A DNA stretch of 39,467 bases, from the IMG/VR virus record IMGVR_UViG_2706794683_000014; one strand, 5' to 3'. Shown in pieces: positions 15,306 through 27,796 of the stretch; the stretch's first letter is position 1; each line of letters starts with the position of its first letter. Both the position numbers and the translations under genes were made by a program. The stretch is from a virus. Its lineage: Duplodnaviria; Heunggongvirae; Uroviricota; Caudoviricetes. The notes under the pieces are model-generated. The model searched no databases, was not told the origin of the DNA, and was given only the letters and a program-made list of their open reading frames with translations.

Positions 15306-15557
15306 TTAGTCCTGATTTTTATCCACCCTGAGTAGTTCGCGCAGAGCAAAGGCATCCCCTTTTCTGGCAAGCTTAAACAATGCCGCTCGTAACTCGGCTT
15401 CACCTTTCGCTCTGCCCTTACGGATGGCCGCATAAAAATCTGTCATTGCTTCCCGATTTTCTTTCAGTCGGTTCAGATCAACATCCAGAACGTCAGCGAT
15501 TTGTTGTGCAGTCATCCGGCACGCTGCCAGAGACTCGACTTTCGAATACGGAATCAT
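15306..15557 (-). CDS. Small helix-turn-helix-like protein (possible packaging or regulatory protein)
   Basis: 83 aa ORF directly upstream of the terminase small subunit gene; start uncertain because it overlaps the upstream ORF (alternative Met at 15515). Confidence 0.4.
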   Translation of the reverse strand: MIPYSKVESLAACRMTAQQIADVLDVDLNRLKENREAMTDFYAAIRKGRAKGEAELRAALFKLARKGDAFALRELLRVDKNQD

Positions 15558-16443
15558 TTGTCACCCCCATTGATATGCAGGGTGTCTTCTTCCTGTATTT
15601 TTCGTGAAGGATTTTTACTGCAGCGTTGTTCCAGGTGACCTGATGGTGAATGCGTTTATGACTGGCACCCATAAGTGAGATTTTTACGCACGACGGCGCA
15701 TACATGACGGAGTAAAAACTTTTAACGTAGGTTCCGGAATCCAGATACAGCTCGGTCATTCCGCCGCTGTTTTTCTGCGTCTGTTTCTGCCCTAACTGGA
15801 CAGCACCGATCGTCATAAACAATTCACCACAGCGACCGAGATTCGTGTACGTATTCACATCCTCGTTAATGCGCCCCATGAATGAGAACGGTCGATCAAC
15901 CGAACAGATAAAGCTGTTCATTGCCTTGCGTTTCACCCACGAAGCATGGCCGCCATTGTCACCAAGAAAATCCCCGCCCTGCGACATAGCGATGGAAAGA
16001 GCAGGTATTGATTCGTAGTACGCAAGCATTTCAGAAAGGATCTCATCCAGTTTCCTTATCGGGAAATAGGCCTGGTCATAGTTGCGATCCACCCGAAACT
16101 GGAACTCGTGATAATCATCATCGAGCTGAATGAAGTATTTACACCCGACCAGTTTTGCCTGGTCGAAACAGGCATTACGGGCGTAAAAAATTGAGCGGCG
16201 GTCACTAAAATTATCGGCTTCGTCAAAACGACTAGCAATATCGGCTTTGGAAAATACCAGCACCTGTTCACCAAATTCAGCCATGTACTGATGCCGTGTC
16301 TTATCTTCATCATCAACAACGATAAAAATTTTCCCGGTATAGCCAGCACGACGCAACGTCCGGTAAGTCAGAACTTTGTCCGGTCGCCCGTGAGTCAGAA
16401 TAAAGGCGCAAAAATCATCACGCATATTCCTCCTCCCCGCCAT
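15493..16443 (-). CDS. Hypothetical protein with a GT-A glycosyltransferase-like signature (DxD-like LDDDY)
   Basis: 316 aa ORF; CAFILTHGRPD ... IFIVVDDED ... YFIQLDDDY resembles the Rossmann/DxD layout of GT-A enzymes; motif-level only, no methyltransferase motifs seen. Confidence 0.35.
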   Translation of the reverse strand: MAGRRNMRDDFCAFILTHGRPDKVLTYRTLRRAGYTGKIFIVVDDEDKTRHQYMAEFGEQVLVFSKADIASRFDEADNFSDRRSIFYARNACFDQAKLVGCKYFIQLDDDYHEFQFRVDRNYDQAYFPIRKLDEILSEMLAYYESIPALSIAMSQGGDFLGDNGGHASWVKRKAMNSFICSVDRPFSFMGRINEDVNTYTNLGRCGELFMTIGAVQLGQKQTQKNSGGMTELYLDSGTYVKSFYSVMYAPSCVKISLMGASHKRIHHQVTWNNAAVKILHEKYRKKTPCISMGVTNDSVFESRVSGSVPDDCTTNR

Positions 16444-17206
16444 GCATGATCTCCACCATGCGCTGCGTCATTCGGACAAATCCATTTTCAATAGCCTGCT
16501 GATAATCAATGATCACCAGCGCCGACTCCTCGAAAAGGCACTGAATTTCAGCGGGGGCATGAGCGTAATAGTCCGCAATTCTGCTGAAATTAAACACCGT
16601 GTGACGTTCTGCTGCACACAGGAGGAATTTCTCAATATCAGGATCAAGGGACGCCGAACGTATCCGGCTGATCAGCTCCTGAGTTTTCGTATCGTCGTAC
16701 AGTTCACTGATATCCGGTTTACCGCCTGACGGCTCATAAACAGGCGTATCAATTTTCGTCGTATACGGCTCCTCCTCATTTCCTGTACCGGGCAAAACAT
16801 CCGTCAACAGTTCATCAATTTCTGCCGGGATGAAGCCTGTCAGGGAGACATCAAAATCAGCATTGATTAGGTCCGACAGCTCCATCCGCAACAGATCTTC
16901 ATCCCAGCCAGCATTCATCGGCAGGCGATTATCTGCCAGGCGGTACGCCTTTTTCTGCTCATCCGTCAGGCCAGACAGAACAATGACCGGAACAGAATCC
17001 ATTTTGAGCATTTCAGCCGCCATAACACGACCGTGACCCGCAATAATTTCGCCCTTTTCGTCAATCAGCACCGGATTAGTCCAGCCGAATTGCTTAATAC
17101 TTTCTACCAGTTGTGCCACCTGCTCAGTACTGTGCGTCCTGGCGTTGTGCGCATACGGTGACAATTCTTGTAATGGGCGATAGACTATCTTTAATTTCTC
17201 GCTCAT
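16418..17206 (-). CDS. ParB/sulfiredoxin-like N-terminal domain protein
   Basis: 262 aa ORF; N-terminal KIVYRPLQELSPYAHNARTHS ... IIAGHGRVMAA resembles the ParB N-terminal nuclease/CTPase-fold signature; acidic C-terminal region. Confidence 0.6.
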   Translation of the reverse strand: MSEKLKIVYRPLQELSPYAHNARTHSTEQVAQLVESIKQFGWTNPVLIDEKGEIIAGHGRVMAAEMLKMDSVPVIVLSGLTDEQKKAYRLADNRLPMNAGWDEDLLRMELSDLINADFDVSLTGFIPAEIDELLTDVLPGTGNEEEPYTTKIDTPVYEPSGGKPDISELYDDTKTQELISRIRSASLDPDIEKFLLCAAERHTVFNFSRIADYYAHAPAEIQCLFEESALVIIDYQQAIENGFVRMTQRMVEIMHGGEEEYA

Positions 17207-18938: not shown

Positions 18939-19403
18939 TTACTTTAAACACTGCTCGGTTATGTATTGCTGAGCACCTTCAAGTTGGGCCTGCATCATTA
19001 CCAGTCGTTCCCGGAGGGTGAAATAATCCCGTTCAGCGGTGTCTGCCAGTCGGGGGGAGGCTGCATTATCCACGCCGGAGGCGGTGGTGGCTTCACGCAC
19101 TGACTGACAGACTGCTTTGATGTGCAACCGACGACGACCAGCGGCAACATCATCACGCAGAGCATCATTTTCAGCTTTCGCATCAGCTAACTCCTTCGTG
19201 TATTTTGCATCGAGCGCAGCAACATCACGCTGACGCATCTGCATGTCAGTAATTGCCGCGTTCGCCAGCTTCAGTTCTCTGGCATTTTTGTCGCGCTGGG
19301 CTTTGTAGGTAATGGCGTTATCACGGTAATGATTAACAGCCCATGACAGGCAGACGATGATGCAGATAACCAGAGCGGAGATAATCGCGGTTACTCTGTT
19401 CAT
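18939..19403 (-). CDS. rzpR: Spanin inner-membrane subunit (Rz)
   Basis: N-terminal transmembrane segment then coiled-coil periplasmic domain; follows the endolysin gene; contains the embedded Rz1 frame. Confidence 0.8.
18998..19183 (-). CDS. rzoR: Spanin outer-membrane lipoprotein subunit (Rz1), embedded in Rz in another frame
   Basis: 61 aa ORF inside Rz; lipobox LVVVGC followed by a proline-rich mature region ([16 protein letters not shown]). Confidence 0.8.
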
Positions 19404-19855
19404 TGCTGACCCCACAAACAGATTTCNNNNNNNNNNNNNNNNNNNNNNNNNNNNNNNNNNNNNNNNNNNNNNNNNNNNNNNNNNNNNNNNNNNNNNNNNN
19501 NNNNNNNNNNNNNNNNNNNNNNNNNNNNNNNNNNNNNNNNNNNNNNNNNNNNNNNNNNNNNNNNNNNNNNNNNNNNNNNNNNNNNNNNNNNNNNNNNNNN
19601 NNNNNNNNNNNNNNNNNNNNNNNNNNNNNNNNNNNNNNNNNNNNNNNNNNNNNNNNNNNNNNNNNNNNNNNNNNNNNNNNNNNNNNNNNNNNNNNNNNNN
19701 NNNNNNNNNNNNNNNNNNNNNNNNNNNNNNNNNNNNNNNNNNNNNNNNNNNNCCAGACCATCGTTACCACTTGGGCCAGTGATTAACACTGATGCTATAG
19801 CAATTGCTCCGCCACCAATAGCAGCAGCAACGACTTTTCGTAATGATGGAGGCAT
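19400..19855 (-). CDS. Signal-anchor-release (SAR) endolysin, phage-21 R type; interior masked by N
   Basis: N-terminus [34 protein letters not shown] and C-terminus EICLWGQQ match recalled phage 21 lysozyme; the same frame stays open across the N run. Confidence 0.75.
19427..19752. other. Masked/undetermined sequence (326 N)
   Basis: Run of n in the input, inside the endolysin gene. Confidence 1.
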
Positions 19856-20070
19856 TATTCACCTCTCGCAGCCTTGCGCTTATCTTCTTTAATCTTGAAA
19901 TAAAGGTTTGTCAGGTACGTCAGCAGGCCAAATACCAGACTACCCAGCACACCGATTGCAGCCCACTGTGACGGAGTTACTCTATCGAGCAACTGTAAAA
20001 ACCAGTAGCCAGCACTGCCTGCGGAGGTGCCGTAGGCAATGCCTGTTGAAATTTTGTCCATGGATTTCAT
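19855..20070 (-). CDS. Pinholin (S21-type class II holin)
   Basis: 71 aa from [26 protein letters not shown]..., near-identical to recalled phage 21 S; GGAGG Shine-Dalgarno 9 nt upstream; dual start motif MKSMDK. Confidence 0.85.
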
Positions 20071-20321
20071 AGCCTCACCTCCGCACGGAACGGATGGCAT
20101 AGTTATTATGTGTAGGCTTTCAGACACATCAATCAGAGCCTTAATTGATATATATGCTGGAGACGATGCAATATAAAAAGCTCGCCGTAGCGAGCTAATA
20201 AAATGTATTTCTCTGATATTATGTTTATTTGTATTAGCTCAGACTTGACATCACAGGTTTCGTATATAGAACATCATCAAATCTGTCAGTTTGCTATGAA
20301 TGAGATATAGTAATTGAAGAG

Positions 20322-20717
20322 CTAACCTCGCATGTCAAAGCCAGATTTCTGAAAATCTCTGTAGACTTCCGGATTGTTGAAGGCCGGAAATTTGGCTTTA
20401 TGAGCTGCGGACTTTATCGCTTCGCAATAGGCTTTATCACCGTTACTGGTAGATATTTTTAACGCCGTGCCATCCTGAGAGAATTCCATATGCAACCTGC
20501 ATTTTTTCCCTTTCCAGTTATGCGGCTCATCAAGTTTGGCATTAATTGCAGCTCTGATTCCCCGCGCTTGCGCCCCCCATTCATCCTGATCATCCCAGCG
20601 TCCTGAACTGCAACTACCTGTAGCAGTAGTTTTGTGGCAATCTGAAGGGTGTAAAGGTGTGCATCCCGCAACAAAACCGACCCAAAAAGTCAACATAACG
20701 ATTTTCTTTAATCCCAC
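20322..20717 (-). CDS. Lipoprotein with TolA domain-III-like C-terminus (diverged paralog)
   Basis: Signal peptide plus lipobox FVAGC-T; C-terminal region alignable to the neighbouring paralog and to TolA domain III (…GKKCRLHMEF…GDKAYCEAIKSAAHKAKFPAFNNPEVYRDFQ…). Confidence 0.7.
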   Translation of the reverse strand: MGLKKIVMLTFWVGFVAGCTPLHPSDCHKTTATGSCSSGRWDDQDEWGAQARGIRAAINAKLDEPHNWKGKKCRLHMEFSQDGTALKISTSNGDKAYCEAIKSAAHKAKFPAFNNPEVYRDFQKSGFDMRG

Positions 20718-20867
20718 TTCTTGCTCCTCAATCCATTAAAATCTCAGCAATAGTAGTTGTTACGTCCGCCACTGGCTCAGAGCTGACTATCCGCTAAATT
20801 TAGCTCAGTGCCGTAGCTGTGTCAGAACAAACCTAAGCCGAAACCGTTTATTACAAAACAATAAATA

Positions 20868-21296
20868 TCAGGGTTTAAAATCCAGCACCCCATTTTGAAA
20901 TACTTTATATACTTCCGGCGAAGGGGGGGCAGGTATATCAGCATTCTTTATCGCATTCATCGCTTCACGACATAAATCGAGGTCTCCACTTTCTCTTTTA
21001 ACCTCCAGTAGAAGGCCATTCGGGGCCATATGCATTCTCAGTGTACACTCTTTTCCTGAATACTTACTCGCATCCCCGAACTGTTTTTCGATGGCGCTCT
21101 TGATTTGATGGGCATACAGACGGATATCCTCACTAACATCAGAAGTACGTTCAGATGAACTCACATACTGTGTCTCTATTGCTTTATCGGAGTAATATGA
21201 TGTACGGTCATGATAATTTGTCGATACAGCATCAGTGCACCCGATAATAATCCCACTAATAATCAACGTAAGAATTGATGCGCTACGAAAACCCAT
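20868..21296 (-). CDS. Lipoprotein with TolA domain-III-like C-terminus
   Basis: Lipobox IIGC-T; C-terminal YAHQIKSAIEKQFGDASKYSGKECTLRMHMAPNGLLLEVKRESGDLDLCREAMNAIKNADIPAPPSPEVYKVFQNGVLDFKP closely parallels the recalled E. coli TolA C-terminus (YAGQIKSAIESKFYDASSYAGKTCTLRIKLAPDGMLLDIKP...AVYEVFKNAPLDFKP). Confidence 0.75.
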   Translation of the reverse strand: MGFRSASILTLIISGIIIGCTDAVSTNYHDRTSYYSDKAIETQYVSSSERTSDVSEDIRLYAHQIKSAIEKQFGDASKYSGKECTLRMHMAPNGLLLEVKRESGDLDLCREAMNAIKNADIPAPPSPEVYKVFQNGVLDFKP

Positions 21297-21884
21297 TTTT
21301 CCTCACATATGTCATATAGTAAAGGATTATATATACCGTTGTTTTGGACGCTCAAACAGCGAATCAGATCAAATAAAACGCACATTTGTTAACATTTACA
21401 CAAAGTCTGCGTGGGATATTCTGAAAGAATATCCATAATGTGGAGAGAATCTATTGAAGTGCATGGTGCCGGGTGCCTCCCGGTGAACAAAATGTTCGTG
21501 ATACCTGTCGGCGACAGAAAAGGTTAATGGTATCACCCCACCGCACAGGGGGATTCACCATGCAGGAGTTTTCTTAGCAAACTCACTGCGCGCCCGGCAA
21601 CTCCCAACCACATAAAATGCGGAGTTTGTGGCATTTATGCATATAACTCGCAGGAATTATCTTAAAAAACTGATGTCGATCCGGATTAAAAAGAAGCAGG
21701 TCATCATCAGATGACTGGAAAAAAGGAAAACAAAAAATACTCATCATACAGTTTTGATTGCAGGGATGAGCCTGCTATGCACAATATGCAGAATATAAGC
21801 AAGATAAAAATATGCAGGCATATTATTTCGGATCTTGTTATTAACACAACCTTTTTAATAATCATTTGGCATACAATAAACCAG

Positions 21885-21913
21885 CCCAAAAAGAACCGCC
21901 TAAACAGGCGGTT
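21885..21913 (-). terminator. Intrinsic terminator-like hairpin in the late leader region
   Basis: Minus strand AACCGCCTGTTTAGGCGGTT followed by CTTTTTGGG. Confidence 0.4.
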
Positions 21914-22233
21914 GGTCAATACAAAGGATGCTTCGTCTTTATTATAGTAATCTGAGGCGTCGGGTGTCTTGTATCAGACAACATATTGTCCCGCTAAACA
22001 GCGAATTACAAACCACCCTGCAATGATCTCTCATCTCATTTTATATGAGTTGACGACATCAGGATAACGCATCATCAGCCCCTGCCAAGAAATATCAAAA
22101 CTCCCGCCAGCAATGTGTTATCACAATATTGTAAAAAAAACACAGCACCGAAACTATAACTGGTCTCTGTTATAATTTGGAGCAGAAAGACCAGTTGCCC
22201 AACTAGCAGCATTCTCCCCTGCTTTCCTGACGT

Positions 22234-22260
22234 AAAAAAACCGCATTAAGCGGTTTTTTT
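22234..22260. terminator. Bidirectional intrinsic terminator; candidate tR-prime of the late operon
   Basis: AAAAAAACCGC-ATTAA-GCGGTTTTTTT: GC stem flanked by an A-run and a T-run, about 80 nt downstream of the Q stop. Confidence 0.6.
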
Positions 22261-22340: not shown

Positions 22341-22883
22341 TCAAGCCATTTTCTCAGCAAATGATTCACGCATGGGAATATATAGGGCATACTCAGCAAC
22401 AGCTAACCAATTAGCAATCCGTTTTTCGCATGTGCTAAAACACCACTCTGGGTGTGCATCATTTAGCAATTCAGCCATTTTGCGCTTAGTCATCCCCCGC
22501 CCTTCATAGCGTTGCCGGAGAATGCAAATCAATCCTGGATGCTCTGCCAGCACCTCACTTATGACTCGATCAATACATAACGCCTCTGCATCAGTACAAT
22601 GCGCCAGCCAGCTCTTTTGCTTGCCGTTGATCATCTCTCGCAAAAACGCTTCCAGCTCAGCTTTCTCTATTCCCGCTTTTTTCATTCTGCGCAGGGCTTC
22701 ATTAATGGCTGTTTTCGTCAGTTTTTTGGATGCCAACAACTGATTGAACATATTCCCTGACCTGCCACCGCCAATATACGACCAGCGCCCCCACATACGT
22801 AGTTTTCCCTGAATCCAGACACTTTCCAGCGTGGTGAGGCGAAGGTGTTCTCCGCTTTTTCCTGTATTCGTTGGGTAAATCAT
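22341..22883 (-). CDS. Late-gene antiterminator Q-like protein
   Basis: 180 aa ORF immediately upstream of the promoter/terminator pair and the lysis genes; tryptophan-rich motif WIQGKLRMWGRW reminiscent of Q-family proteins. Confidence 0.55.
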   Translation of the reverse strand: MIYPTNTGKSGEHLRLTTLESVWIQGKLRMWGRWSYIGGGRSGNMFNQLLASKKLTKTAINEALRRMKKAGIEKAELEAFLREMINGKQKSWLAHCTDAEALCIDRVISEVLAEHPGLICILRQRYEGRGMTKRKMAELLNDAHPEWCFSTCEKRIANWLAVAEYALYIPMRESFAEKMA

Positions 22884-25541: not shown

Positions 25542-26543
25542 TTAGTAATCTGCGTGTTTCGCACTTTTCAGAAATGCTTTCATATTTTCATTAGGTCGCT
25601 CAATTTCGAAGTTACTTCCATATAACTCTTGTAATTTTGGCCATAACTTACTTAATAACCCTCTCCTGCGATAAAATGGATGTATCCAAACGGTAGATAG
25701 GTACGGAGAATTTGCATTTGAATTGTTTATTGTGACCAGCCCAACTAAACATTGTCGATAACCACTATTATCCATTGATTGTATTTCTTCGACGAATGGA
25801 TACGCGATTACATCAGTCCAACCATGATCGGTTGTATCCCATTGCATTCCGTCATGACATTCCTTCGACTGATAGCGGCGTAAAGCTACACACGCGAGCT
25901 TTTGCCAATCTGGAGAATTAATTGTGATCTCTTCATCGTATGACGCGCCTATTGGAGCGGGTATTGGTCTGATTAATCCAGCATGGCATTCATCATAGAA
26001 CTTCATGTTTCCCTCAGAAACGTTGTGTACGTTGGGTTGCTCCATGTGTGCGCCATTCAAAAATAGCTCTGATAGTAGTGTATCTACACTGTAATCTTTA
26101 TTGATTATTGTCGGCTTAGAGTTTTTCTTATTAAGGCCGCGAGTAACGATTTTTTGATCAATGTTAACAACATGGAATAATCCGTCGGGGAGGCTAGCGA
26201 ACCACGATGGGGCATCGGACCAGAATAGCATGCCTTTTGTACTTCTTAAGAGTTTAATTAAGTTAATACAAGCTTCTTCACTAGTCTTGCCGTTGATGCG
26301 AAGTATGTTAGGACTAAAGTAATATTCATCCATATCAGGGAATGCAGCTTCGCAAAACTCCTGTACATAATTTAGCACCTGGATTCTACAGAGATCATCA
26401 TAGCTGGTAATAACTAAGGGGGTATCTTCATTACTATTATGATTATCAATAATGCAATCTATAGCGAGACTTACTGCTTTGCGTATCACTTCAGTTGAAT
26501 CTAACGACTCTAAAAATTTTGTCTTTCGTGTGCGAATATCCAT
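25542..26543 (-). CDS. Hypothetical protein with a C-terminal GNAT acetyltransferase-like motif (cassette gene 2)
   Basis: 333 aa ORF; C-terminal ...LVGLVTINN...STVWIHPFYRRRGLLSKLWPKLQELYG resembles GNAT motif A; N-terminal ~220 aa unrecognised; AT-rich; starts 16 nt after the upstream gene stop. Confidence 0.6.
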   Translation of the reverse strand: MDIRTRKTKFLESLDSTEVIRKAVSLAIDCIIDNHNSNEDTPLVITSYDDLCRIQVLNYVQEFCEAAFPDMDEYYFSPNILRINGKTSEEACINLIKLLRSTKGMLFWSDAPSWFASLPDGLFHVVNIDQKIVTRGLNKKNSKPTIINKDYSVDTLLSELFLNGAHMEQPNVHNVSEGNMKFYDECHAGLIRPIPAPIGASYDEEITINSPDWQKLACVALRRYQSKECHDGMQWDTTDHGWTDVIAYPFVEEIQSMDNSGYRQCLVGLVTINNSNANSPYLSTVWIHPFYRRRGLLSKLWPKLQELYGSNFEIERPNENMKAFLKSAKHADY

Positions 26544-26558
26544 GTATGACCTGCGCTA

Positions 26559-27581
26559 TTAAAATTCATGAATGAACGGTTTGTCATCTGGTTGCAAAAT
26601 GGTGGTTTTATTCGTTGCTACATTTAAACTGTTGTAGAGCATAATTGCCAGGTTCGATGCATTTTCAATCAGCGTTTCAAGATCCTGGTCTGTAATCACT
26701 ACGAGGTTCCCTTCTTTATCCTTTCCACCACGATGCACTAAGTGATTTCGATTGAGGGTTGCCAATTCAATAGCTTCTATCGGACAGTCTTTTTGTACTT
26801 TTATATCGAATGTAGCTTCATAGCGGTCGATTACCTTTTTAGTGCTATGCCAGCTTGCACTGATCAAGTGTTCCTTGATTGACCTGATTAGCTCTCCCCT
26901 AATTTTCTCGATGGGTTCACCCTTGAAAGGCAACGCAGCAATATCTTTGCTTACTTTAAATTCAGTCTTACCTTTTTCTATACAATTGGCTATGTAGACA
27001 TCATCTTTCTCTATAGAATTAATGAATAGCTCAACATAAAGCGTTTCCAAAGCTGTAATAACATTCGTGTAGAGCAAACTAAGCAAGTGGTTTTTTTGCT
27101 GTTGTTCAGTTTTATCTTTTGCAAGTTTTTTTATTTTATCGATATTATCAATGAATTTTAAATACGGATTACCGGAAGACGTTACAGCGTCGTAGATATC
27201 ATCATCGTACCAATCATCTATATTATTTGAGTTTCCAGACCAGTCAAAACATTGTGTTTGTAATTCATCTACTAATTCCTCAATATACTCAGATTTAACA
27301 TATTGACCGAAGATGGATTGTAGTTCTTCGCTCGCATCATACGGCCCGCCATATATGTAAGCATAGCCACCTTCTCTACTTTCATACGGACAAGCATTTG
27401 CCGGATCTTCAAAGTTTTCAAAGAACCAGTTTTTCATTACTTCGAGTTGATCTTTTTTGCTTATGTATTTTAAAGATTTTAGTGGAACTTTCTTTCCATT
27501 AACCTCGAAAACAATTTTCACGATGTAACGCTCCCTTGTATCAATTGCGCAACTATTATACCACAGCGAAATACAGGGCAT
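26559..27581 (-). CDS. Hypothetical protein with an R-x4-H (HEPN-like) motif near the C-terminus (cassette gene 1)
   Basis: AAGGAGG Shine-Dalgarno 6 nt before the ATG at 27581 (MPCISLWYNSC...), 340 aa; C-terminal ATLNRNHLVHRGGKD contains R-x4-H; AT-rich; no recognisable phage-core homology. Confidence 0.6.
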   Translation of the reverse strand: MPCISLWYNSCAIDTRERYIVKIVFEVNGKKVPLKSLKYISKKDQLEVMKNWFFENFEDPANACPYESREGGYAYIYGGPYDASEELQSIFGQYVKSEYIEELVDELQTQCFDWSGNSNNIDDWYDDDIYDAVTSSGNPYLKFIDNIDKIKKLAKDKTEQQQKNHLLSLLYTNVITALETLYVELFINSIEKDDVYIANCIEKGKTEFKVSKDIAALPFKGEPIEKIRGELIRSIKEHLISASWHSTKKVIDRYEATFDIKVQKDCPIEAIELATLNRNHLVHRGGKDKEGNLVVITDQDLETLIENASNLAIMLYNSLNVATNKTTILQPDDKPFIHEF

Positions 27582-27796
27582 AACCTGCCTCCTTAAACTA
27601 ACATACCATGAGCCAGCAATGTCCGCTATTGGCACAAAGCGGACAACCACGCTAGCTCTCCCCTGTGCCAGAAAAATGTCAATTTACATATGAACTAATG
27701 CTCTTTGATCTAGTAACGTCTATAAATACCGAAGATTTCCTTGATAAAATGCCAGTACACGTTTCATAACTTCACTCTTCCGGCACTCGCGACAGA

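Follow-up and report, generated by a model that had tools for sequence, protein, structure and literature searches.

Predicted lipid-anchored TolA domain III modules between the antiterminator and lysis genes of a Rac-type prophage: possible decoys for filamentous phages and colicins

The Llp protein of phage T5 and the Cor proteins of phi80, N15 and mEp167 shield the host from other phages and from colicins via one envelope pathway, and do so by binding and inactivating FhuA. Lambdoid prophages also carry morons near the lysis cassette, among them the bor/iss lipoprotein gene of lambda and stx, which lies between Q and S. Filamentous-phage g3p exclusion, and the tolerance that comes from periplasmic TolA domain III (TolAIII) or colicin T-domains, belong to the classical experiments of the field. 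Here we describe a pair of genes which bears on all three systems, found in a viral DNA record of 39,467 nucleotides (IMG/VR IMGVR_UViG_2706794683_000014; the whole of this stretch is referred to as the window). Judged from its gene content the window represents a lambdoid prophage of the Rac type from Escherichia coli, and the pair encodes proteins of 142 and 131 amino acids (aa), each consisting of a predicted lipoprotein signal, a linker and a TolAIII-like domain.

The interactions of TolAIII itself have been described in some detail. The N1 domain of g3p (g3p-N1), colicin N (ColN) and the N-terminus of TolB each add a β-strand to TolA β3 (PMC4339652; for TolB also PMC7391070), the three compete for TolA (PMC4339652), and the substitution D418P or K420P abolishes all three β3 interactions (PMC4339652). 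The affinity of TolAIII is ~1 μM for g3p-N1 and ColN and ~40 μM for TolB (PMC4339652), the TolB interaction being weak throughout the reported range of 40-200 μM (PMC4339652, PMC7391070). Colicin A (ColA) binds the opposite edge of the domain at L375-P380, with cation-π contacts to K368, K379 and K396 (PMC3365938).

The initial annotation, made from the letters of the window, had proposed two open reading frames (ORFs) with signal peptides and lipoboxes, and both were recovered at the predicted coordinates on the minus strand. The 142-aa ORF begins with ATG, preceded by GAGGA. Its N-terminus reads MGFRSASILTLIISGIIIGC followed by TD, with the lipobox IIGC, Cys20 and threonine at +2; the signal peptide and lipobox occupy residues 1-20 (nucleotides (nt) 21237-21296), a disordered linker spans residues ~21-53, and domain III spans residues 54-142. 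The 131-aa ORF begins with GTG, preceded by GAGGAG at a spacing of 6 nt, and its N-terminus reads MGLKKIVMLTFWVGFVAGC followed by TP, with the lipobox VAGC, Cys19 and again threonine at +2; here the signal peptide and lipobox take up residues 1-19 (nt 20661-20717) and domain III residues ~45-131. Both N-termini combine a positively charged n-region, a hydrophobic core and a lipobox of the form [LVI][ASTVI][GAS]C. The linker of the 131-aa protein additionally contains a Cys27-x8-Cys36 loop (window 20610-20639), 7-8 residues past the lipidated cysteine, that is kept throughout the clade of this protein (e.g. P0168, P0171, P0176, P0181 and P0185) and absent from the 142-aa clade. The reading of threonine at +2 as an outer-membrane sorting signal likewise held, as neither protein has the aspartate at +2 that acts as the inner-membrane retention (Lol-avoidance) signal, and both proteins would be localised to the outer membrane.

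These signals do not appear in current annotations. RefSeq, through PGAP, labels the 142-aa gene a pseudogene ("tolA, incomplete, missing N-terminus") and places the start of the 131-aa protein at Met8, by which the positively charged n-region is lost. The ORF starting at GTG is to be preferred to the Met8 call because plasmid alleles have ATG at the corresponding position. Owing to the pseudogene call and the Met8 start, the lipoprotein signals go unseen in hundreds of annotated genomes (L002 20123-20929, corresponding to window 20322-21128). The homology is not new, since databases recognise the domain, and it is the lipoprotein nature of the proteins that annotation has hidden.

The claimed residue-for-residue correspondence between the C-terminus of the 142-aa protein and TolA domain III was borne out by alignment and by modelling. 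Against TolA 334-421 the 142-aa protein aligned over 88 gap-free columns with 52 identities (59%), while the 131-aa protein, expected to be the more diverged copy, had 27 of 88 (31%), also ungapped; between the two paralogues the identity is 29%. Pfam TolA_C (PF06519, cutoff 25) matched the 142-aa protein with 82.6 bits (E 2.4e-23) and the 131-aa protein with 54.6 bits (E 1.3e-14), and the E. coli TolAIII chains 1s62, 3qdp, 1tol and 2x9a were matched at E 5e-28 (88 ungapped columns) and E 5e-9, respectively. In AlphaFold models of both proteins the signal peptide and linker were disordered and the C-terminal domain was confident (pLDDT ~90). Superposed with Foldseek, the AF2 model of the 142-aa protein fitted 2x9a_B, from the structure of the complex between TolA and the g3p of phage If1, with a root-mean-square deviation (rmsd) of 0.7 Å and a TM score of 0.95; that of the 131-aa protein fitted 3qdp with an rmsd of 1.1 Å and a TM score of 0.92. 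The disulphide cysteines of TolAIII were invariant in the alleles compared, and they were kept, together with signal peptide and lipobox, in alleles down to 66% identity.

Both proteins contain domain III without any other part of TolA. The transmembrane domain I of TolA is not present, the N-termini being lipoprotein signal peptides with predicted cleavage at Cys20 and Cys19, and neither is the long domain II, at 142 and 131 aa versus 421 aa for TolA. In the NCBIfam TolA profiles the matched positions are confined to 293-386 of 387 and 265-362 of 362. The full-length TolA model PRK09510 gave 107.8 bits for the 142-aa and 53.7 bits for the 131-aa protein, far below its cutoff of 213; TIGR02794 gave 75.6 bits for the 142-aa protein, over its cutoff of 59.45 through domain III alone, and 47.2 bits, below cutoff, for the 131-aa protein. 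The neighbours of the pair are a Q-like gene, a small RNA (sRNA) and a holin, not the members of the ybgC-tolQRA-tolB-pal-cpoB operon. On the missing domains I and II, the PRK09510 scores and the locus, we rejected the possibility that these are true TolA orthologues. Without the inner-membrane anchor and the long helical domain, neither protein can be energised by TolQR.

The ligand-binding sites of TolA were mapped onto both proteins through the ungapped alignments. The 142-aa protein has the β3 segment L417-P421 (LDFKP) unchanged, and the segment reads FDMRG in the 131-aa protein, where the aspartate is kept, the lysine is replaced by arginine and the β-forming residues are kept. The strand contacted by ColA, LLDIKP in TolA, is LLEVKR in the 142-aa and ALKIST in the 131-aa protein, and TolA K368, K379 and K396 correspond to H, K and K in the former and to E, S and H in the latter. 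The two paralogues may differ in range and need not have one function in common. The 142-aa copy retains near-native TolA surfaces, and the 131-aa copy comes from an older lineage that is conserved separately.

A cassette of 1251 nt containing both genes was present in 773 of 5426 complete E. coli genomes (14%, at ≥99% identity and ≥80% coverage) and in the isolated phage mEp460_ev081, the sole INPHARED record matched. In IMG/VR it matched 148 contigs, of which the best 80 carry the same module; 77 of these 80 have the gene pair in identical form and the remaining 3 are cut at the contig end. Both genes are, by their pairwise ratios of nonsynonymous to synonymous substitution (dN/dS), under purifying selection; comparison of the 142-aa gene to its alleles in other prophages gave 0.26-0.39, and comparison of the 131-aa gene to plasmid, Enterobacter, Serratia and Citrobacter alleles gave 0.08-0.15. 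In lambdoid prophages whose Q genes, lysis genes and terminases are different, this slot is filled by 142-aa-type alleles (66-91% identical) that stand alone, without the 131-aa gene; the tandem pair is specific to the Rac/mEp460-type module.

The 131-aa type is much more widespread than the 142-aa type and is not specific to phages. At ~88% identity it was found in 607 plasmid records. IncB/O/K/Z (I-complex) plasmids have it on the strand of nikA-nikB (nikB encoding the relaxase), 68 bp downstream of these genes, and it probably shares an operon with them; in pO157 its place is between toxB and the leading region. An identification of the plasmid homologue with yggA of IncI1/R64 proved wrong, yggA being on the opposite side of oriT, and in the IncI1 plasmid pESBL no gene was found between nikB and trbC. 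A single orphan chromosomal gene of this type occurs in Enterobacter, Citrobacter, Serratia, Klebsiella and Raoultella, and further in Pluralibacter, Pantoea, Kluyvera, Yokenella and Rouxiella, with a neighbourhood that varies by genus. A genome scan combined with Pfam scans of the flanking ORFs at distant loci identified as neighbours a GmrSD_N and HEPN pair (S. marcescens), a fused AAA_21-DUF4435 protein that is OLD/PARIS-like (Klebsiella indica), an integrase (Raoultella) and a Fic protein (S. grimesii). These four loci (L005 8957-10736, L031 9320-10948, L036 6195-7406 and L047 8627-9418) resemble small variable islets. The plasmid-type allele was also seen on contigs filed under Lachnospiraceae and Treponemataceae metagenome-assembled genomes (L028 and L029), which are almost certainly contaminated in binning by enterobacterial plasmid fragments.

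An exhaustive profile search returned 590 representative clusters at E values up to 1e-3. The best 150 of these included 75 short full-length proteins, 56 with a recognisable lipobox, and aspartate at +2 occurred in none of the 56. The named members of the family are all from Enterobacterales and are annotated just as "TolA C-terminal domain-containing". On these sequence comparisons, TolAIII with a predicted lipid anchor is a family and not the curiosity of a single phage.

The placement of the pair between Q and the lysis genes, as first proposed, was upheld. Strain ECCHD184 has an identical stretch whose annotation runs through intR, xisR, recET, kilR, sieB, replication genes and a DUF1367/YbcO/DUF1133 block to essD-rrrD-Rz, trkG and the head and tail genes, and a Pfam scan of the window ORFs agreed with it. 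The product of the Q-like gene matched Pfam DUF1133 at E 2.5e-107 and Phage_antitermQ at 26.1 bits against a cutoff of 26. On the other side the slot is bounded by the holin, the first lysis gene, followed by endolysin and Rz/Rz1. Features of the slot are collected in Table 1.

Table 1. Features in and around the slot between the Q-like gene and the lysis genes (window coordinates)
Feature	Position	Strand	Remarks	Evidence
Q-like late-gene antiterminator candidate (DUF1133)	22341..22883	minus	upstream boundary of the slot	Pfam, RefSeq
Hairpin with T-run	~22234-22255	minus	~85 nt downstream of the Q-like gene	read by eye; not flagged by the scan
Promoter-like site AAGACA-18-TATAAT (21941-21970), then hairpin terminator (21894-21913)	21894..21970	minus		consensus scan
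STnc100-family prophage sRNA	21407..21593	minus	full-length match	Rfam RF02076, 86.6 bits vs gathering score 47
Sigma-70-like promoter candidate TTGAGC-18-TATAAT	21326..21355	minus	10/12 matches	consensus scan
142-aa lipoprotein gene	20868..21296	minus		ORF and translation; Pfam, PDB, model
131-aa lipoprotein gene	20322..20717	minus		ORF; Pfam, PDB, model
Intrinsic-terminator-like hairpin AGCTCGC-TACG-GCGAGCT, then TTTTT	20179..20196	minus		scan and direct reading
P21-type holin (essD)	19855..20070	minus		Pfam Phage_holin_2_1, E 4.5e-35; RefSeq essD coordinates transferred from L002

The sigma-70-like promoter candidate precedes the start codon of the 142-aa gene by ~30 nt and is mostly kept in the 91%-identical alleles of other prophages, the gap between the two genes is 150 nt, and the terminator-like hairpin, with a GC-rich stem, separates the stop codon of the 131-aa gene from the start of the holin gene. 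The GC content of the cassette is similar to that of its flanks. With a candidate promoter and a candidate terminator flanking the gene pair, the layout looks like that of a moron; transcription of the cassette in the lysogen could be autonomous, and Q-modified polymerase would read through it as well.

Upstream of the cassette, the hairpin that follows the Q-like gene and then the promoter-like site with a second terminator are laid out like a PR'/tR' late control region, and the latter two elements possibly constitute a PR'/tR'-type late promoter region. The STnc100 sRNA sits directly upstream of the cassette, ~110 nt before the 142-aa gene; STnc100 has been linked to the PasD sRNAs of Stx phages in a 2026 preprint. 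Downstream, most of the gene for the endolysin, named rrrD at the identical RefSeq locus, is masked by a run of N (window ~19430-19760), where the ORF translations show long poly-X stretches. An Rz1-type o-spanin lipoprotein (18998-19183, minus strand) is embedded in the Rz gene (18939-19415, minus strand) and is a third outer-membrane lipoprotein within 2.3 kb of the cassette.

The reading we favour, although we hold it tentatively and at somewhat less than even confidence, is that the two proteins are non-energised decoys, held at the outer membrane, which trap the β3 ligands of TolA, namely the g3p of filamentous phages and the group A colicins. The lysogen would make both proteins from their own promoter, with late read-through in addition after induction. 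A flexible tether of 26-33 residues would keep each domain just beneath the outer membrane, where the g3p or the colicin translocation domain of an invader emerges first, and the free β3 edge would bind g3p-N1 and the translocation domains of group A (Tol-dependent) colicins by β-strand addition. A ligand caught on such a decoy would have reached a dead end, leaving the cell and its element tolerant. Localisation at the outer membrane, expression in the lysogen, ligand binding and a protective phenotype are predictions of this reading.

The decoy reading is favoured by the retention of β3, the lack of domains I and II and the moron architecture taken together. Further points for it are the lipoboxes lacking aspartate at +2, the invariant disulphide cysteines, the dN/dS values of both genes and the recurrence of 142-aa alleles in this slot of lambdoid prophages whose Q and lysis modules are unrelated. 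It also fits the presence of the 131-aa type on I-complex plasmids, which make pili, and beside defence genes. I-complex pili are the receptors of If1-type filamentous phages, and the g3p of If1 uses TolAIII (PDB 2x9a). As g3p and ColN are bound at ~1 μM versus ~40 μM for TolB, a decoy could titrate invaders at little cost to Tol-Pal. More broadly, and with yet less confidence, lipid-tethered TolAIII may represent a widespread and unrecognised form of innate immunity of Enterobacterales and their mobile elements, consisting of co-receptor decoys beneath the outer membrane. Prophages would then carry the decoys as morons, with tandem diverged copies widening the range of ligands, and for pilus-making I-complex and F-type plasmids they would make up for the susceptibility to phages that the plasmids' own pili bring.

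Several observations weigh against the decoy reading. None of the three ColA-site lysines survives in the 131-aa protein, and in Enterobacter and Citrobacter its gene is stable amid ordinary metabolic genes. The C-terminal half of the 131-aa type is nearly invariant between genera, which suggests one conserved partner over an arms race. Neither protein matched PADLOC-DB v2 at E values up to 1, on which ground membership of a known defence family was rejected, and PHROG 5772, the PHROG family of the proteins, is labelled "unknown function"; searches of both proteins against Pfam and PHROGs gave only TolA-type and unknown-function families. The promoter and terminator of the cassette are consensus matches only. 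Moreover, TolAIII over-produced in the periplasm reportedly gives a leaky tol phenotype, so that a decoy may be costly. The statement that these proteins have no established function also stood, as full-text literature searches on TolA-like prophage and plasmid proteins and on decoys found no paper on the function of these lipoproteins.

The near-invariance of the 131-aa C-terminal half would suit a conserved host partner such as TolB, and this is one of the points in favour of a modulator of Tol-Pal, in which the tethered domain binds the N-terminal TolA box of TolB and changes TolB-Pal cycling. TolB uses the β3 site that is conserved in both proteins (PMC4339652, PMC7391070), tuning of TolB interactions has been suggested as a means of regulating vesicle production (reviewed in PMC7391070), and the cassette, being immediately upstream of the holin, would be co-transcribed with it after Q antitermination. 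The outcome could be more or less wall-bound Pal, altered vesiculation or envelope robustness of the lysogen, or a weaker outer membrane that aids lysis once the late operon is read through. We consider this role rather unlikely. The TolAIII-TolB affinity is weak, the candidate terminator of the cassette precedes the holin, and the plasmid and chromosomal homologues are unconnected with lysis genes; in addition, perturbation of Tol-Pal is normally deleterious and fits poorly with carriage by 14% of E. coli genomes. For the 131-aa lineage in particular, the domain might instead have been neofunctionalised as an adaptor, the TolA/TonB-type fold docking by β-strand addition onto another conserved envelope protein, such as a porin, an outer-membrane receptor with a segment resembling a TonB box, or part of a pilus or of a type IV secretion apparatus. 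Its purpose would then be unrelated to TolA ligands, be it receptor blocking in the manner of T5 Llp and phi80 Cor or assistance to conjugation. The low identity of the 131-aa protein to TolAIII, its distinct and highly conserved surface, the extra Cys-x8-Cys loop and the loss of the ColA-site lysines all speak for this possibility, as do the position of the gene directly after the relaxase genes of I-complex plasmids, probably in one operon with them, and the fold itself, which is common to TonB C-terminal domains that bind TonB boxes likewise. Even so, the top sequence and fold matches are TolAIII and not TonB, the gene neighbourhoods differ in every genus and yield no candidate partner, and the 142-aa copy is too TolA-like; we regard an adaptor as unlikely.

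The PGAP label of the 142-aa gene and the PRK09510 scores far below cutoff would agree with functionless, decaying fragments of captured tolA genes. Such fragments would not be expected to appear as intact ORFs with canonical Shine-Dalgarno sequences, to keep signal peptides and lipoboxes down to 66% identity, or to give dN/dS values of 0.08-0.39, nor would the pair be expected in 77 of the best 80 viral contigs and in 773 complete genomes, or the architecture to be shared by 56 lipobox-bearing representative clusters. On the intact signals, the dN/dS values and the wide conservation, the RefSeq pseudogene call was rejected, and this explanation is highly improbable and close to refuted.

Other features of the window were noted in passing. 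Two adjacent ORFs of 333 and 363 aa (25542-26543 and 26559-27650, both minus strand) have no Pfam or PADLOC match and are located between the replication genes and the DUF1367 block, beside a stretch of 26-32% GC (~24.0-24.6 kb). The reference Rac-like locus L002 has other cargo at this place, and the two ORFs are possibly an unexplored cargo or defence pair. Next to trkG, the region 15493-17206 (minus strand) encodes a ParB_N protein and, overlapping it, a TET-associated glycosyltransferase-like protein (Pfam TAGT); the ParB_N protein matches a PADLOC type II methyltransferase model, and the two proteins may form a DNA-modification module. A tRNA scan of the window found no tRNA genes.

Whatever the function of the two proteins, the 142-aa gene is concealed in RefSeq behind the label "tolA pseudogene", and the family supplies natural TolAIII variants for dissecting the specificity of β-strand addition. 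If the decoy reading is true, the pair would be the first example in nature of host protection by a mobile element through mimicry of a periplasmic co-receptor and not through masking of a surface receptor. That so many E. coli, roughly one of every seven sequenced, as well as pO157 and the IncB/O/K/Z resistance plasmids carry the gene would then be explained, and the finding would matter for phage display, for colicin ecology and for plasmid-dependent phage therapy. Ff and If1-type phages have been proposed as anti-plasmid agents.

With TolA domain III (E. coli ~334-421; PF06519; 1S62, 3QDP, 1TOL and 2X9A) the two proteins share the fold and the disulphide. They differ from TolA in being, as predicted, lipid-anchored in the opposite membrane without coupling to TolQR and the proton-motive force, and their genes lie outside the tol-pal operon, on a prophage, on plasmids or as orphans. 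By analogy, they resemble Llp and Cor as small phage-encoded outer-membrane lipoproteins that would face the periplasm; the family is not shared, judged from Pfam giving TolA-type hits alone, and the likeness is functional only. Unlike Llp and Cor, a decoy would imitate a periplasmic co-receptor and bind the invader instead of the receptor. With the lambdoid morons the cassette has in common the slot between Q and lysis genes, the small self-contained unit, the promoter- and terminator-like sites and an envelope lipoprotein as predicted product, although its protein family is unrelated to theirs. As in g3p exclusion and TolAIII tolerance, saturating one side of the TolAIII-ligand contact in the periplasm would block Tol-dependent import; there, an invader protein acts on TolA or the domain is artificially over-expressed, whereas here a natural and seemingly lipid-tethered copy is found on unrelated elements. 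Exclusion lipoproteins and Q-to-S morons are kinds already known, which a co-receptor mimic would extend by a new variant.

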